This document shows positions 1 through 36,506 of a stretch of DNA of 36,506 nucleotides, piece after piece. The notes below the pieces were generated by a model, which worked only from the letters and a program-made list of their open reading frames with translations, made no database searches and had not been told where the DNA came from. The translations under genes and the position numbers were made by a program. This DNA comes from a virus (Duplodnaviria > Heunggongvirae > Uroviricota > Caudoviricetes): the IMG/VR virus record IMGVR_UViG_2534681651_000007, positions 1 through 36,506 of that record; one strand, written 5' to 3'. Every line of letters starts with the position of its first letter. The first letter of the stretch is position 1.

Positions 1-1284
1 TTACTTCTTCGCCTCTGCAACCACTTTGCTACCCACGCCGCGGTTATTGTATTCCCACATGCGGTTGTAGTTAGTGTCATTCAGATTACGCTGTACTTCG
101 TCGTTATCATCAACGCTGCCGGTGTTACCCGCAAACGGACGATTGGAAATCACCGCATCGGCCCACGGTTTCGCCGTGTTAAAACCTTCGTTGATGGCAC
201 TATCACGGATCACCACCTGACCGTTGGTATTAGCATCAACATCCAGCGAGCGGCCCAGTTGCGCCACGCCATCACCGGAAGCATTGAAACGGCTGTTTAC
301 GGCGAGGAAACCGTAATAGATGTTAGACAGCGTAGCCGGTGCAAACACATACGCTTCTTGCTGAGTACGTGAGTTCACCACGCGGAATTCGGTATTATCG
401 AACACCACTGCGCCGCGACCAGAAACGATATCCACATCCCCTTCAATGTAACTGTTGGTCACCAGAGTACGCGGCTGACGGTTGGTTTCCAGACGGTTTT
501 GCACACCACTGTTGGTGACAAAGAAGGTATTCTGACGACCGAGAATGTTGACGTTATTGATCTGCACTTTGTCGCCATCAGTACGCAGTGCCACCGCCGG
601 ATGGTTACCCGCATCTACGCTATCGCCCAGCGTGTTTTCGATGGTCAGGTTTTGCAGTTGCAGGCCATTGTTTTGTGACCAGAAGACCGCAGAGCAGAGA
701 ACGCCGATACTGTCGCTGCGTTTGCTCTGGCAGCTATCGTACATATACCACGCTGGTTTACCTGGCATATATTTGCCGCGCGGGTTGACGTCGTGACGCC
801 AGTCGGCAGGGCTCATGCCCCCATCAAGGGAAAGCCCAATCTTCACATCAATCGGTTTTTCACCTGTACCGTACAGAGTAATTCCACCCGGAGCGGCAGG
901 GACATACACCGTTCCCTGATACTCACCAGGCATCACGGCAATATACTGGCGCTTGTTGGTGCGCTTGATAATTGCCGCATCTACCGCCGCCTGAATCGTG
1001 GTATGCGTTACACCTTGAGTACCCGCCGGGCCGACAACAAAGTCAGGTTGCGCAGGCAGGGTAATCGGGGAAGGATTCCACGCTGCCGCACCTGGTGTCA
1101 GGGATGCAAAATAGTGTTGAGCATCGAAATTCTGCGCTTCTTTTGCCGACAGAATCGGGCGAGAAGAGGTACCAGGCGCGGTTTGATCAGAAGGACGTTG
1201 ATCGGGCGGTGTTGAGCTACAGGCGGTCAGCGTCACGCCAAAAGCCAATGCCAGCGCCAGACGGGAAACTGAAAATGTGTTCAC
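1..1284 (-). CDS. ybhC: Host outer-membrane lipoprotein YbhC (pectinesterase-like), the gene flanking the lambda attachment site
   Basis: Complete 427-aa ORF with lipoprotein signal (…GVTLTACSS); N-terminus matches recalled E. coli YbhC; lambda att core lies 47 bp beyond its start codon. Confidence 0.85.
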   Translation of the reverse strand: MNTFSVSRLALALAFGVTLTACSSTPPDQRPSDQTAPGTSSRPILSAKEAQNFDAQHYFASLTPGAAAWNPSPITLPAQPDFVVGPAGTQGVTHTTIQAAVDAAIIKRTNKRQYIAVMPGEYQGTVYVPAAPGGITLYGTGEKPIDVKIGLSLDGGMSPADWRHDVNPRGKYMPGKPAWYMYDSCQSKRSDSIGVLCSAVFWSQNNGLQLQNLTIENTLGDSVDAGNHPAVALRTDGDKVQINNVNILGRQNTFFVTNSGVQNRLETNRQPRTLVTNSYIEGDVDIVSGRGAVVFDNTEFRVVNSRTQQEAYVFAPATLSNIYYGFLAVNSRFNASGDGVAQLGRSLDVDANTNGQVVIRDSAINEGFNTAKPWADAVISNRPFAGNTGSVDDNDEVQRNLNDTNYNRMWEYNNRGVGSKVVAEAKK

Positions 1285-1418: not shown

Positions 1419-2489
1419 TTATTTGATTTCAATTTTGTCCCACTCCCTGCCTCTGTCATCACGATACTGTGATGCCATGGTGTCCGACTTATGCCCGAGA
1501 AGATGTTGAGCAAACTTATCGCTTATCTGCTTCTCATAGAGTCTTGCAGACAAACTGCGCAACTCGTGAAAGGTAGGCGGATCCCCTTCGAAGGAAAGAC
1601 CTGATGCTTTTCGTGCGCGCATAAAATACCTTGATACTGTGCCGGATGAAAGCGGTTCACGACGAGTAGATGCAATTATGGTTTCTCCGCCAAGAATCTC
1701 TTTGCATTTATCAAGTGTTTCCTTCATTGATATCCCGAGAGCATCAACATGCAATGTTGTAGGGATGGCAATTTTTACGCCTGTTTTGCTTTGCTCGACA
1801 TAAAGATATCCATCTACGATATCAGACCACTTCATTTCGCATAAATCACCAACTCGCTGCCCGGTAACAACAGCCAGTTCCATTGCAAGTCTGAGCCAAC
1901 ATGGTGATGATTCTGCTGCTTGATAAATTTTCAGGTATTCGTCAGCCGTAAGTCTTGATCTCCTTACCTCTGATTTTGCAGCGCGAGTGGCAGCGACCGG
2001 GTTTATTGTTATATGGCCTTCAGCTATTGCCTCTCGGAATGCATCGCTCAGTGTTGATCTGATTAACTTGGCTGACGCCGCCTTGCCCTCGTCTATGTAT
2101 CCATTGAGCATTGCCGCAATTTCTTTTGTGGTGATGTCTTCAAGTGGAGCATCAGGCAGCCCCCTCCTTATTGCTTTAATTTTGCTCATGTAATTTATGA
2201 GTGTCTTCTGCTTGATTCCTCTGCTGGCGAGGATTTTTTCGTAGCGATCAAGCCATGAATGTAACGTAACAGAATTATCACTGTTGATTCTCGCTGTCAG
2301 AGGCTTGTGTTTGTGTCCTGAAAATAACTCAATGTTGGCCTGTATTGCTTCAGTGATTGCTATCCTCCTGTCTCGGCCTAATCCAAACTCTTTACCCGTC
2401 CTTGGGTCCCTGTAGCAGTAATATCCATTGTTTCTTATATAAAGATTAGGGGGTAAATCCCGGCGCTCATGACTTCGCCTTCTTCCCAT
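1419..2489 (-). CDS. int: Tyrosine integrase, lambda Int type
   Basis: 356-aa ORF beginning MGRRRSHERRDLPPNLYIRNNGYYCYRDPRTGKEFGLGRDRR, ending ...RDDRGREWDKIEIK, as recalled for lambda Int; adjacent to att P' arm. Confidence 0.97.
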   Translation of the reverse strand: MGRRRSHERRDLPPNLYIRNNGYYCYRDPRTGKEFGLGRDRRIAITEAIQANIELFSGHKHKPLTARINSDNSVTLHSWLDRYEKILASRGIKQKTLINYMSKIKAIRRGLPDAPLEDITTKEIAAMLNGYIDEGKAASAKLIRSTLSDAFREAIAEGHITINPVAATRAAKSEVRRSRLTADEYLKIYQAAESSPCWLRLAMELAVVTGQRVGDLCEMKWSDIVDGYLYVEQSKTGVKIAIPTTLHVDALGISMKETLDKCKEILGGETIIASTRREPLSSGTVSRYFMRARKASGLSFEGDPPTFHELRSLSARLYEKQISDKFAQHLLGHKSDTMASQYRDDRGREWDKIEIK

Positions 2490-32406: not shown

Positions 32407-32892
32407 CTATCTGATATTACTGCTACTGTTGCATGTTACCGTGTTTCCAAATCCTGAATTGCAGTTTGTATATGTGTCAACGCGTGTTGGGTAAGGTTGA
32501 GTTATAACAGGCTGGCGCGCTTTTTGCTCGATCGCTTGCATTGTGTTTACAGCCTGATAATTCAATAAAGCCTGCTGGAATGCTTGGCTTTGTGCTATTT
32601 GTTGTGCTTGTTCTTGGCTTTGTAATTGAACATAAAGATTCTGAAGCTCAAGTCTTGCCTGTGCGTCACTTATCTTGCCTTCATCGACACCTTGCCCGAG
32701 CATCTTCGCAGCAAGGACATACAGCTTAGGGGTTGGTGCTGATGCCATGCGTGAGTCGTTCTTCACACTGGCATCAAGGCAATTCGCCATGTCGCTAAGT
32801 CTTGGATAACGTTGCTCGCAACTTGCCTGATAGTCGCTAACCTTTGCACACCCTGCCAGCAGAAGCGGGATAATTAACAGTGATTTTTTCAT
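32407..32892 (-). CDS. Lipoprotein (161 aa from the ATG at 32892; signal MKKSLLIIPLLLAGC), Gln-rich mature domain
   Basis: Lipobox LAGC after a hydrophobic signal; AAGGAGAG Shine-Dalgarno; reverse-oriented in the slot where P22 has sieA. Confidence 0.8.
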   Translation of the reverse strand: MKKSLLIIPLLLAGCAKVSDYQASCEQRYPRLSDMANCLDASVKNDSRMASAPTPKLYVLAAKMLGQGVDEGKISDAQARLELQNLYVQLQSQEQAQQIAQSQAFQQALLNYQAVNTMQAIEQKARQPVITQPYPTRVDTYTNCNSGFGNTVTCNSSSNIR

Positions 32893-33026
32893 ATGATTAA
32901 CTCTCCTTATCTTTGCCATCATGGCACTGTTGGGTGTAAATGAGTTATTAACTCAACTGACAATATCTTCACGGAAATACTTTTTATTATTAAGATCTTT
33001 CTGATTCTAACAAAACGGAAAGTAAT

Positions 33027-33446
33027 ATGAAGAGGATTATCGGCGTCGTTGCTGGCGCTATATTGTTATCTGGGTGTGCAACTATTGTTGGTGACGAAAC
33101 GCAGCTTGTGCAAGTGAACAGCAATCCTTCCGGTGCGAGCTTTAAAGTAAAAGACGAATCAGGCGTGATTGTTGCGCAAGGCAAGACCCCGCAAGGAGTA
33201 ACTCTTGCCAAGTCAGATGGTAGTTATTTTGGCAAAAAGAGCTATCAGATCACTATGGAAAAGGATGGGTACGAGCCAGTAACCTTGCCAATCAAAGCCA
33301 ATGCTAATGGTTGGTATATTGGTGGAAACCTTGTGTTTGGTGGGTTAATTGGTTGGCTTGCTGTAGATCCATTTAATGGTGGGATGTATACCTTGAAGCC
33401 AAAAGAGGCAAATGCATCCCTTATACCGTCCACAAAGCAAGACTAA
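33027..33446 (+). CDS. Lipoprotein with PEGA-like domain (139 aa; signal MKRIIGVVAGAILLSGC)
   Basis: Lipobox LSGC; motif NSNPSGASFKVKDESG...GKTP resembles the PEGA domain; Gly-rich hydrophobic C-terminal segment; followed by a strong terminator. Confidence 0.8.
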   Translation: MKRIIGVVAGAILLSGCATIVGDETQLVQVNSNPSGASFKVKDESGVIVAQGKTPQGVTLAKSDGSYFGKKSYQITMEKDGYEPVTLPIKANANGWYIGGNLVFGGLIGWLAVDPFNGGMYTLKPKEANASLIPSTKQD

Positions 33447-33454
33447 TAAATAGG

Positions 33455-33477
33455 ACCCACCTTCAGGTGGGTTTTTT
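33455..33477 (+). terminator. Rho-independent terminator (ACCCACC-TTCA-GGTGGGT followed by T6); the mnt stop codon lies in its loop
   Basis: Read directly. Confidence 0.8.
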
Positions 33478-33714
33478 GTACAAATCCTTCAGCGTATCAA
33501 ACACCATCTTCTTAACAAGTTCGGACTGCTCATCAGCGATGCGTTCTGCATCGTCTCGATAGCCTGAAATTTTGGATGGCTTTGATACAGCATCAGTAAC
33601 TATCTGAACTAATTCTGAATTAAGAGAGCGGCCATTGGATTTGGCTCGCTGTTTTAGTTTTTCCTTTAATTCGTAAGGTAGCCGCAGATTAAATTGCGGG
33701 TCATCTCTTCCCAT
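33463..33714 (-). CDS. mnt: Mnt repressor (ribbon-helix-helix, P22 immI type)
   Basis: 83-aa ORF MGRDDPQFNLRLPYELKEKLKQRAKSNGRSLNSELVQIVTDAVSKPSKISGYRDDAERIADEQSELVKKMVFDTLKDLYKKPT, close to recalled P22 Mnt. Confidence 0.9.
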   Translation of the reverse strand: MGRDDPQFNLRLPYELKEKLKQRAKSNGRSLNSELVQIVTDAVSKPSKISGYRDDAERIADEQSELVKKMVFDTLKDLYKKPT

Positions 33715-33777: not shown

Positions 33778-33792
33778 AGACCACTGTGGTCT
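33778..33792. promoter_or_regulatory. Candidate Mnt operator: perfect 15-bp palindrome AGACCACTGTGGTCT between mnt and the tailspike gene
   Basis: Palindrome read directly; half-site resembles the P22 Omnt dyad (GGTCCAC-G-GTGGACC as recalled). Confidence 0.55.
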
Positions 33793-33860
33793 CTTTATTT
33801 GATTAATAATGCATCACTGCGGCAATGCTGCGGCGATTCCTTGTATCTGGAGCAAATTAA

Positions 33861-36506
33861 ATGACAGACATTACAGCCAATGTTGTAGTGAGTATGCCTT
33901 CGCAACTCTTCACTATGGCGCGTTCTTTTAAAGCGGTTGCCAATGGCAAAATTTATATCGGTAAAATTGACACTGACCCTGTAAATCCTGAAAACCAGAT
34001 TCAGGTTTATGTAGAGAACGAAGATGGCTCTCATGCTCCTGTTTCGCAACCAATCATCATTAACGCTGCTGGATATCCGGTATATAACGGACAGATTGCC
34101 AAGTTCGTAACTGTGCAAGGCCATTCTATGGCTGTTTATGATGCGTATGGTGCACAGCAGTTCTATTTTCCTAATGTGCTGAAGTATGACCCGGATCAGT
34201 TTAAACAAAAAGTATTATCAAATGATATGCTAAATATGTCTCCTCTTTATTTTGGAGCTAAGGGGGATGGGATTAGCGATGATACTGAAGCATTTGTCGC
34301 GTTGGAAATGGATATAAAAAATAGGGTTATTGATTTAAGTGGAAGAGCATTTTTTGTTACTAAAAGTTTTATTAAAAATAGCTATATAAATGGTTCTTTT
34401 ATTCGTGATAGCAGTAAACGAATTGCGATTGGTGATCTTAAAGTAAGAGATAAAAGAGAGCCATTGATATTTTCCGGAATGCCAAAAGTATATAACACCA
34501 GACACACGTTGCGCAGAACTGAAGGTGCGGGTGGTTTATATGCGGTCATTCAGGGGTGTTGTTATGATGAAATTAACGACAAGATTTTTACTTTATCATC
34601 TACCACAGCATACGGTTATTGCATTAATGCCTTTGACGTGACGAATTCTGGTGAACTAGGAAGATACGACAGAACTCGTTCTACTGAACTTGGGCATCAG
34701 GGGCTTGGATTGCATCATAATCCTGATGGTACTGTCGTGCTGTGGACATCGAAGCCTTATGGAACTGATGCCGCCAATCAATGTATTTCGATGGAAAATA
34801 TATTGAGTTACACAGGGACAACTAACGGAGTATCTGAAGGTTTTATCACCTGGAAGTTGTTCCCCTATGATGGAATGAGCGCAAGCTCTACTCCAACTGT
34901 ATCAAGTTGTGAAAACTATCTCCTTGCCAAGAAAATTTCATCGGATGGAATTACCTGCACGGTTCGTGTTTTCGACATAGTCAGCATGTGGAATAACAGA
35001 GCTCATAAAACTGATTATAGTGATGATTATTTAGTTGAGTTTAGCTATCAAAAACCATCACAAGAAGCATTTACCCAATCAATTGCTTGCGATGGGGCAT
35101 ACATTTACATACTTGAGTCACATATGTATGTTGGCATGACTAATTATATTTACGTATTTGACTTAACAGGCAGGTTTATTGAGCGAGTAGATATTTCAAC
35201 TGTTGGTGATGATGAAGCAAAATCTGATAGTACAGGAACTCCTGTTTATAAAGAGCCTGAGTCCCTAACAGTAATTAGAACGGAGAGTGGGTATGTTTTA
35301 ACGCTGGGGATATGCACATATAAAGGAGTTGCTGAGAACGGGAAAAATGTATATCTGTTTGATATAGGCAGGTCTGGTTCGGTAGTGCAAAGCAAAGCAA
35401 GCCGTTCTGTATCCAGTAATACTGGTCTTCATAGTTCTGGCTCCCCGGAGTTCAAATATGGAGTAAGGGAGTACAATGATACTTTTCACTGGACAGTTTG
35501 GCCAACAAGAAAGGGTATTCAAACTAACCGGGATAACCCTATATTGTTCCTTGATGGCGGAATTACTGGTGGAATGCAGTTAGCTTCAAATGGTACGGAA
35601 GGGATGAGCAACTCATGGGTTTCTCGGCATCAGTCAGATACCGCAGAAGGACCAAGAGCAATAATGTATAAATCTCGTTCTGGTGTTGTATCAACTGATA
35701 ATTTTGGAGCCCTGCAGACAGGGGATGTATTGGGTACTCATGTATGGGCCGGTGATACGGGTAGTAAGGCTGTGCAATGCGCAAGCATTAAATGCGTCAC
35801 AAGAGGCAATCCTTCCGGAGAAAATATCCCAGTTGCTTTTTACTTTGGAACTATGGGAGAGAGTGACGGCTTGCGTGACAGATGGGTATTAACAGAATTA
35901 GGTCATTTTCGACCATCAGGTTCAAATCTCTATGATATTGGTACACAGTCGAATACTGTCAGAAATCTGTACATCAATAATAGTCCAATTGTAACCAGCG
36001 ACAGAAATTACAAGCAGGATGAAACTTCATTATCTGATGCAGAACTGCGGGTTGGAATGGCTATTTACCCGCTGATAAAAAAATTCAGAATGAAGGATGC
36101 TGTAAAAGAAAAAGGCTTATTAGCGCGTGAGCATATCGGTGTAATTGCGCAAGATATACAATCCATCTTTGCATCGGCAGGGCTTGATGCATTTTCTTAT
36201 GGGGTTCTTTGTTATGAAGAGTGGAATGACGAGTTCGAGAAAGTCTATGCAACAAGAAATGTGACCAGGAAAATTTTGGTTGATGAAGAGTCTGGTCAAT
36301 ATGATGAAATCATAGAGGAAGAAGAGTATGAAACGGGTGAGGTAAGGCTACTTGTAGAATCAGGAAGGAAATTATCAGTGCGCTATGACGAGTTAATGTT
36401 TCTGGCAATGAGCGCACTATATCATCGCCATGAACAGGATATTGCCAATATCACATCAAAGATTAATGATCTGGAAAGATTATTAAAATTAACACTAAAT
36501 GGTTGA
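33861..36506 (+). CDS. Tailspike: P22 gp9-like N-terminal head-binding domain, beta-helix (pectin-lyase-like) receptor domain, C-terminal intramolecular-chaperone (self-cleaving) domain
   Basis: N-terminal about 120 aa ([43 protein letters not shown]...) nearly identical to recalled P22 gp9; motif [16 protein letters not shown] typical of beta-helix glycosidases; near the C-terminus TSDRNYK (Ser and Lys five residues apart) then LSDAELR...IYPLIK, resembling the S74-type chaperone domain. Confidence 0.88.

Follow-up and report, generated by a model that had tools for sequence, protein, structure and literature searches.

We analyzed a 36,506-nucleotide stretch of viral DNA (positions 1 to 36,506 of IMG/VR record IMGVR_UViG_2534681651_000007), referred to below in its entirety as the window. 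The window ends with a tailspike gene, the stop codon of which is the final codon of the 36,506 nucleotides. We found that the product of this gene is probably the receptor-binding protein of a P22-like E. coli prophage, and that it is a chimera of five parts: a head-binding anchor, an endosialidase-type N-terminal (End_N-type) domain, a five-bladed beta-propeller, a stalk, and an S74 chaperone. The gene and its parts lie at the following positions (aa, amino acid residues).

33849..33852, + strand: Shine-Dalgarno sequence GGAG, 8 nt 5' of the ATG, read from the sequence
33861..36506, + strand: complete tailspike open reading frame (ORF), ATG start, 881 aa, 97.8 kDa precursor, stop codon at 36504-36506
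33861..34199, + strand: head-binding (virion anchor) domain, aa 1-113 (PF09008)
34198..34208, no strand: mosaic junction, codons ~113-116, at the end of nucleotide identity to P22-like phages
34248..34445, + strand: End_N-type domain, aa ~130-195, with a GAKGDGxSDDTxAF motif (PF12218 below threshold; family profile)
34446..35375, + strand: predicted five-bladed beta-propeller receptor-binding platform, aa ~196-505, with blades at ~211-259, 269-312, 328-372, 392-434 and 439-502
35376..35996, + strand: trimeric beta-stalk and distal tip, aa ~506-712 (sequence matches in the PDB)
35997..36503, + strand: Peptidase_S74 intramolecular chaperone, aa 713-881, 169 residues, 19.5 kDa (PF13884)
35997..36014, + strand: predicted autoproteolysis site, Ser713 (nucleophile) and Lys718 (base), in T712-S-D-R-N-Y-K718 (from alignment)

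The N-terminus is a head-binding domain of the P22 type. The PF09008 model (Head_binding) matched residues 1-113 end to end (model positions 1-113; 221.4 bits, cutoff 24; E 2.7e-66). An initial annotation of the gene had described the first ~120 residues as nearly identical to P22 gp9. The kind of domain was correctly named, but the near-identity was overstated: over the 113 residues, identity is 76% (86/113) to P22 gp9, and Sf6 gp14 (7sg7; 92%) and HK620 (92.6%) are both closer. The nearest solved structure is that of Sf6 gp14 (E 3e-65), followed by structures of the P22 tailspike; the Sf6 and P22 structures cover residues 1-120.

We found that the resemblance to P22-like phages ends inside the gene. 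The P22-like prophage backbone in the window is 95-96% identical in DNA sequence to CUS-3, Kapi1, Sf101 and similar phages, and this identity stops at window position ~34200. More than 1000 E. coli prophage tailspikes found with megablast match the gene only up to nucleotides 341-361 (codons ~114-120). The end of the backbone match (window ~34198-34205) coincides with this stop and with a drop in GC content, and it agrees with the anchor of ~124 aa delineated for Lederbergviruses (PMC10408124).

The base composition changes at the junction, though less simply than first described. An AT-rich patch directly after the junction (aa 114-180, 34200-34400), spanning the linker and the End_N-type domain, has a GC content of 28.9% and a GC content at third codon positions of 17.9%, compared with 39-44% GC in the other parts of the gene, 47% in the prophage and 49.9% in the phage structural genes. 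The receptor part had been called AT-rich relative to the N-terminus. This holds modestly for the gene beyond the head-binding part (39.6% vs 43.1%, with the dip to 28.9%), but not for the stalk (43.5%).

The domain-swapped origin proposed initially is borne out by the end of identity at codon ~114 and by the presence of the same receptor module behind other anchors. By megablast, the whole gene occurs in four complete E. coli genomes only, at ~97% nucleotide identity; at the protein level, the cluster of 97%-identical sequences has 269 members. The same receptor cassette, with 63-79% identity over the middle region, follows a Tail_spike_N anchor in P0004, from an SU10-like phage. In P0007, from a T7-like phage, it comes after the N-terminus of a T7 tail fibre and Tail_spike_N, and P0008, from a multi-spike phage that has baseplate-wedge genes, carries it behind another anchor. 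Two lambda-like siphophage sources (P0009 and a Leclercia metagenome-assembled genome) have it as part of a fibre gene that comes after the gene for a GpJ-like protein. A profile search of genome contigs, based on a closer alignment, found one locus only, in Leclercia, and a scan of genome contigs with the single protein found nothing. As judged from these sequence comparisons, the receptor cassette (End_N, propeller, stalk and S74) moves horizontally between phage backbones that are not related to each other.

We found that the middle of the protein is predicted to fold as a five-bladed propeller. The only Pfam match on this segment is PF21311 (Phage_RBD_prop, Phage 5-bladed beta propeller receptor binding platform domain), which is below threshold and covers model positions 1-226 of 255. 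Twenty-four of 40 family representatives match PF21311 at E <= 0.001, and relative P0002 (71% identical overall, 100% over residues 221-280 and 481-640) exceeds the threshold with 32.3 bits. Searched against the whole PDB, a profile of the propeller alone matched only the proteins of phages P68 (1e-14), phi11 (1.2e-10), NF5 (1.6e-10) and 80alpha (1.9e-10). In an AlphaFold2 monomer model built from a 13-sequence alignment, residues ~200-500 have a predicted local distance difference test score (pLDDT) of 70-89, and 20 strands form five four-stranded blades. Four independent lines of evidence thus agree that the middle region is, as far as models and alignments go, a five-bladed propeller homologous to the platform of phi11, 80alpha and P68 (Staphylococcus), NF5 (Brochothrix) and GA-1 gp12 (Bacillus).

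The propeller contains invariant or nearly invariant residues that point to a common cavity. Across 17-40 divergent relatives these are Q231, G278-H279-Q280-G281, S348, R369, Q406, D411, E465 and E467. In a profile alignment to phi11 Gp45 (chain numbering +12), Met164-Gln165 corresponds to Q231, Met329-Gln330 corresponds to Q406, and Thr211 falls at the GHQG motif. Met164-Gln165 and Met329-Gln330 line the cavity proposed to accommodate N-acetylglucosamine (GlcNAc) in phi11 Gp45 (PMC4901313). P68, NF5, phi11 and GA-1 likewise carry the E-x-E-G motif. Since phi11, P68, NF5 and GA-1 have the invariant residues in common with the tailspike, these would mark a family-wide central cavity and not an enzyme-specific site.

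A separate observation concerns recombination within the propeller (window 34521-35300, aa ~221-480). The tailspike and P0002, which has a Tail_spike_N anchor, are ~100% identical over aa 221-300 and 481-760, and 45-70% identical in blades 3-5 (aa ~300-480). Blades 3-5 may carry determinants of specificity.

The stalk was recognized from matches to solved structures: 4uw8 (T5 pb1) over residues 611-791, 7y5s (Kp7 fibre) over 562-799, and 3gw6 (endoNF) over 681-866. The regions ahead of S74 in T5 pb1, the Kp7 fibre and endoNF are related to its final ~100 residues, and relatives of the tailspike have weak PF12219 (End_tail_spike) matches directly before S74. Pfam gave nothing for residues 506-712, and NCBIfam gave nothing for the tailspike. 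A search of representatives of 1.84 billion proteins found other fibre proteins in which the stalk segment is a repeated unit.

We confirmed the proposal that the C-terminus is an S74-type chaperone with a Ser...Lys dyad. PF13884 matched residues 713-775 with 32.3 bits (cutoff 22), and the last 216 residues match the S74 structures 6eu4, 4uw8 (T5 pb1), 3gud (GA-1 gp12), 3gw6 (endoNF; aligned over 682-866), 9vvr and 7y5s. The chaperone had been placed correctly, but at 169 residues it is longer than the ~150 first suggested. In the motif TSDRNYK (712-718), Ser713 aligns with the Ala of the S1264A construct of pb1 ('TADARLK', 4uw8), with the residue at which the GA-1 chaperone starts after its release ('SDERHK', 3gud), and with the Ala of 'TANGERK' in 3gw6, which we take to be the S911A mutant of endoNF. 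Lys718 aligns with the catalytic Lys in 4uw8 (K1269), 3gw6 and 3gud. The roles of Ser1264 and Lys1269 in T5 pb1 (PMC4690869) and of the Ser/Lys dyad (PMC3742440) have been described, and self-cleavage at the conserved Ser was demonstrated by mass spectrometry for gp13 of EP335, a coliphage receptor-binding protein (PMC8217332).

Other features of this domain are also those of S74 chaperones. A GVIAQ sequence, which has been linked to trimerisation (PMC3742440), is found at aa 760-764 (36138-36152), within HIGVIAQD (758-765). Residues 713-881 of the AlphaFold2 model form helices, one long beta-hairpin (791-832) and, at the C-terminus, a long helix (842-878), as has been described for the chaperone of pb1 (PMC4690869). 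The Ser-x4-Lys dyad is kept in 10 of 11 S74-bearing relatives. The exception, P0003 (Leclercia sp. W6), reads T-C-S-R-E-Y-K, against T-S-(D/S)-x-x-Y-K in the remaining sequences. The nucleophilic Ser has been either replaced by Cys or moved by one position, and P0003 might serve as a natural experiment on the chemistry of cleavage.

Several observations weigh against the assignment of the protein as a five-part receptor-binding protein. On the tailspike itself, PF21311 scored 17.4 bits (cutoff 23.7) and PF12218 scored 14.7-19.7 bits (cutoff 26.3). The AlphaFold2 monomer has a mean pLDDT of 58, and the stalk is not resolved in it. The positions of Asp1239 and Arg1250, the Asp/Arg 'folding sensor' of T5 pb1 (PMC4690869), are occupied here by S688 and T699, with Arg701 two residues further on. 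For PF12218, 24 of 40 family members match at E <= 0.001 and several relatives attain the 26.3-bit cutoff; the family profile also matched the N-terminus of endoNF (1v0e, 3gvj) in the PDB at E ~5e-13. The model score is low at the N-terminus because only two rows of the alignment carry this part, and low in the stalk because the stalk is obligately trimeric and intertwined. The T-x-R pattern (T699-x-R701) is also present in 6eu4.

The neighbouring genes and sites in the window are those of a P22-like prophage.

1..1284, - strand: host ybhC-like gene, pectinesterase family, at the left end of the window
1419..2489, - strand: lambda-type integrase gene, adjoining the ybhC-like gene
32407-32922, - strand: small ORF, 171 aa, lipoprotein-like N-terminus (…LLLAGCAK…), between the gp16-like gene and mnt
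33027-33446, + strand: small ORF, 139 aa, lipoprotein-like N-terminus (…ILLSGCAT…), between the gp16-like gene and mnt
33463-33714, - strand: gene for an Mnt-like protein, 83 aa, with Arc and Repressor_Mnt domains
33778-33792, + strand: terminator-like hairpin AGACCACTGTGGTCT followed by a T-run, ~70 nt 5' of the tailspike ATG

An identical tailspike protein is encoded on NCBI contig JH590760.1 (GCA_000242055.1), with ybhB, bioA and bioB downstream. With the ybhC-like gene and the integrase gene to the left and ybhB, bioA and bioB to the right, the prophage occupies the attachment site of lambda in E. coli. Elsewhere, the same tailspike occupies IntS/argW-associated elements.

The upstream structural module is complete, from integrase through ejection proteins. 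Directly 5' of the tailspike are an Inj_translocase (gp20-like) gene and gp16-like ejection genes, then mnt, so the gene is positioned as in P22-like phages, 3' of the ejection genes and the immI region. The Mnt-like protein is the sole regulator found between the ejection genes and the tailspike; neither arc nor ant was evident in the window between the Mnt-like gene and the tailspike. In E. coli strain 'C', the same tailspike is preceded by two Arc-family genes and ant. The 171-aa and 139-aa ORFs had no Pfam match. The pair is also present at the equivalent position in phage Gally, and these ORFs could be exclusion or moron genes. Terminator-like sites are more numerous in the region (12) than in shuffled sequences (2.6 expected).

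We found that a gene for a GT2 glycosyltransferase accompanies the receptor module in prophage-type contexts. On the source contig, the features beyond the end of the window, and the further GT2 loci, are as follows.

L005:10667-10687: terminator-like hairpin, strong 8-bp stem with 6 GC pairs, from 21 nt past the stop codon, between the convergent tailspike and GT2 genes
L005:10693-11997, - strand: GT2 glycosyltransferase gene, 434 aa, convergent with the tailspike gene and starting 47 nt past its stop codon
L001:8696-9811, L003:10696-11832, L006:7586-9979 and L010:7742-9049: further GT2 genes

The GT2 gene has a GC content of 34.6%, and its product, a soluble protein, has no hydrophobic segment. 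In each of the five prophage-type contexts that we examined (three P22-like and two lambda-like siphophage), an orthologous GT2 gene adjoins the receptor module and is convergent with it. Genes with 92-95% nucleotide identity to it are found behind the tailspike in strain 'C', where the gene is truncated, and in CUVM3, where it is split by IS3. The orthologues in the lambda-like siphophage contexts are 45-47% identical over their full length (E 3e-129 and 2e-142); the Leclercia GT2 has an additional N-terminal extension of ~360 aa. In the three contexts of the T7-like, SU10-like and multi-spike phages, whose flanks are free of visible lysogeny genes, no GT2 gene was found within 5 kb. With a GT2 gene in five contexts and none in three, the sample is small.

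Genes for O-antigen modification behind the receptor-binding proteins of Lederbergviruses are a known theme (PMC10408124). The linkage pattern points, indirectly, to a receptor that is a surface polysaccharide made from cytoplasmically built units, most likely O-antigen. The pattern is consistent with a lysogenic conversion that affects the receptor glycan.

Based on these results we suggest a model for the function of the protein. The S74 domain (713-881) would drive trimerisation and folding of the stalk and then remove itself by autoproteolysis at Ser713/Lys718. Cleavage is predicted to convert the 97.8 kDa precursor to a mature subunit of 78.3-78.4 kDa and a fragment of 19.4-19.5 kDa. As in P22 and Sf6, the trimer would be docked onto the hub of the tail by residues 1-113. 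The three propellers would form a platform with a sugar epitope in its central cavity. The propeller (~196-505) would bind the sugar moiety of a surface polysaccharide, most likely O-antigen, and probably would not cleave it; this is the least certain step in the model. The stalk and tip (~506-712) would point toward the cell. In T5 pb1, a receptor-binding groove is suggested to be uncovered when the chaperone is released (PMC4690869), and by the same reasoning the stalk of the tailspike may supply a second binding site. In temperate phages, the cassette travels with a soluble GT2, and this enzyme would alter the same glycan in lysogens, with serotype conversion and superinfection exclusion as the outcome.

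Binding without cleavage has to be weighed against a protein of the same architecture with a catalytic propeller. In this alternative the propeller is a glycosidase, lyase or phosphodiesterase that destroys an O-antigen or capsule receptor, like the six-bladed endosialidase propeller of CUS-3 and K1F. We regard it as somewhat unlikely, but as a serious possibility. The domain layout resembles that of the endosialidases, invariant acidic residues are present, and five-bladed glycoside hydrolase (GH) folds are among the structural neighbours. In addition, the characterised P22-like tailspikes known to us are all enzymes. The label of phrog_8280, 'colanic acid degradation', also favors catalysis, but this label is an annotation and not an assay. 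The invariant residues that line the cavity are Gln, and not the Asp/Glu triad of GH43-like enzymes, and the invariants are common to the receptor-binding proteins of phi11, P68, NF5 and GA-1.

What has been reported about phi11 Gp45 concerns binding. A central cavity of Gp45 has been proposed to bind sugar, and the invariant Gln, His and Glu residues of the tailspike are the counterparts of this cavity. Phi11 is reported to require GlcNAc on wall teichoic acid, and for Gp45 the binding of sugar was proposed and catalysis was not described (PMC4901313). Catalytic activity is not known to have been demonstrated for any member of this propeller family. The term 'polysaccharide depolymerase' used at first for the tailspike therefore has no direct support. 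A match of the receptor domain to a non-enzymatic fibre had been named as an outcome that would speak against that annotation, and in part this is what we found, in that the propeller is homologous to the platforms of receptor-binding proteins. The role of propellers in the receptor-binding proteins of phages has been called 'unclear' (PMC12491483). EP335 gp13 has an S74 domain and is not described as a propeller protein (PMC8217332); DepoCatalog makes no mention of propellers, and neither does the paper on receptor-binding proteins of Klebsiella temperate phages.

The gene might also be an inactive relic of a defective prophage that has lost the tailspike function, and this we consider very improbable. 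The copy in E. coli C does lie in a prophage remnant of ~10 kb at argW, and the neighbouring GT2 gene is truncated there and split by IS3 in CUVM3. In contrast, the ORF in the window is intact, it has a Shine-Dalgarno sequence, and a complete P22-like structural module lies upstream. The residues that are invariant in the family are preserved, as is the dyad, and the gene has full-length copies at ~97% identity in four complete genomes and a 97%-identical protein cluster of 269 members.

The least probable alternative, which is almost certainly wrong, is that the middle of the protein is a beta-helix polysaccharide depolymerase like those of P22, Sf6 and HK620, with GDG...DDT as its signature. 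A GAKGDGxxDDTxAF sequence does begin pectate-lyase-like beta-helix enzymes, and the family profile matched polygalacturonases, glucanases and phi29 gp12 in the PDB, but at positions ~120-143 only. PF12708 matched 16 residues of the motif (13.2 bits). The GDG-DDT motif quoted in the initial annotation as a beta-helix signature is present, at residues 130-145, but it belongs to the End_N-type domain, and what follows is a five-bladed propeller according to the Pfam matches of relatives, the AlphaFold2 model and the PDB profiles. We therefore rejected a right-handed beta-helix for the middle region: the overlap with pectate-lyase-like models is ~16-25 residues, and beyond this N-terminal motif there was no beta-helix match in Pfam, in the PDB or by fold. 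Prediction and homology, as far as they allow, run counter to a beta-helix. Membership in the endosialidases was also rejected. Only the End_N domain and the end of the stalk with S74 are held in common; the endosialidase propeller models gave no match, and the endosialidase PDB entries aligned solely at profile positions 129-179.

These assignments matter because the receptor modules of tailspikes determine the host range of phages. The GDG-DDT motif alone misassigns proteins of this kind to beta-helix depolymerases, which is relevant to automated depolymerase annotation and to the prediction of host range for phage therapy. To our knowledge, binding without destruction of the receptor is unprecedented among characterised P22-like phages. 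Tentatively, we propose that a P22-like podovirus uses a lectin-type five-bladed propeller from the family that phages of Gram-positive bacteria use on teichoic acids, either as a non-destructive binder or as an uncharacterised class of enzyme acting on enterobacterial glycans. In either case the propeller cassette and the soluble GT2 would be a co-mobile 'recognise plus modify' unit, directed at one and the same glycan, across podophage, siphophage and other backbones. Propeller modules are frequent in enterobacterial phages and prophages and are functionally uncharacterised, their properties being called 'unclear' (PMC12491483). The locus is a tractable example of such modules, with a simple P22-like chassis, homology to solved receptor-binding proteins of Gram-positive phages, and a linked glycosyltransferase that possibly indicates the receptor.

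The known protein most similar in overall layout is the GA-1 neck appendage protein, gp12, which was the best match in a library of viral structures (E 3e-26 over 729 columns). Its gene (L004:12157-14376) encodes an S74 domain scoring 68.7 bits. The two proteins share a homologous five-bladed propeller (hhalign 98.8%, E 4e-17), followed by a stalk and by an S74 domain that in GA-1 starts with 'SDERHK'. They also share the motifs PQG, ELGHQGL, TPTIS, Q-x2-ACDG and E-x-EGL (in BLASTP, 'ELGHQGL', 'TPTIS' and 'ACDG.Y.YI'). Identity is ~26% in the propeller and 41% in S74. In contrast to the tailspike, GA-1 gp12 has a phi29-like N-terminal anchor, no End_N_terminal match in Pfam, and a Gram-positive host. 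The GA-1 chaperone cleaves itself, and its structure has been characterised (PMC4690869, PMC3742440). The match indicates that propeller, stalk and S74 are an old unit common to phages of Gram-positive and Gram-negative bacteria. The phi11 Gp45, 80alpha gp61, P68 tail fibre and NF5 Gp17 proteins (5EFV, 6V8I, 6IAB, 9M7X) have a propeller of the PF21311 type, with 10-14% identity to that of the tailspike. Unlike the tailspike, they have coiled-coil stems and C-terminal 'tower' domains, and have neither S74 nor a P22 anchor.

Of the matches in deposited phage genomes, the tailspike of Escherichia phage Gally (a Lederbergvirus, prophage of strain LF82) comes nearest, with 38% identity over residues 1-569; with CUS-3, it is one of two precedents among P22-like phages. 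The Gally tailspike shares the head-binding domain and a propeller of the same family, and upstream it has the two small ORFs and mnt. It differs in length (799 aa), in a distinct C-terminal part and in having no S74 match; we found no functional data on the tailspike in the Gally paper (PMC9928086). In T5 pb1, the C-terminus (4UW7, 4UW8) is homologous in the pre-cleavage segment and S74 (residues 611-791, E 6e-14), with the scissile Ser and the Lys aligned. Pb1 differs in being a long siphovirus fibre with no propeller, and its Asp1239/Arg1250 sensor is out of register in the tailspike.

The endosialidases of CUS-3 and K1F/K1E (endoNF; 1V0E, 3GVJ, 3GW6) have the same order of End_N, propeller, stalk and S74, and an aligned Ser/Lys dyad. 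The propeller of the tailspike is five-bladed in the model and of another family. The sialidase propeller of the endosialidases has six blades and an inserted beta-barrel, and these enzymes cleave polysialic acid. The CUS-3 protein, which is described in the literature as ending in S74 as well, combines the P22 head-binding domain with a module that is not a beta-helix. It is 77% identical to the tailspike over residues 1-148, including End_N, and the CUS-3 record annotates a 'boundary sequence' in this region. Every module of the tailspike belongs to a described family, and because CUS-3 already pairs the P22 anchor with a non-beta-helix module, the tailspike is a less common but recognisable member of the known families of phage receptor-binding proteins.

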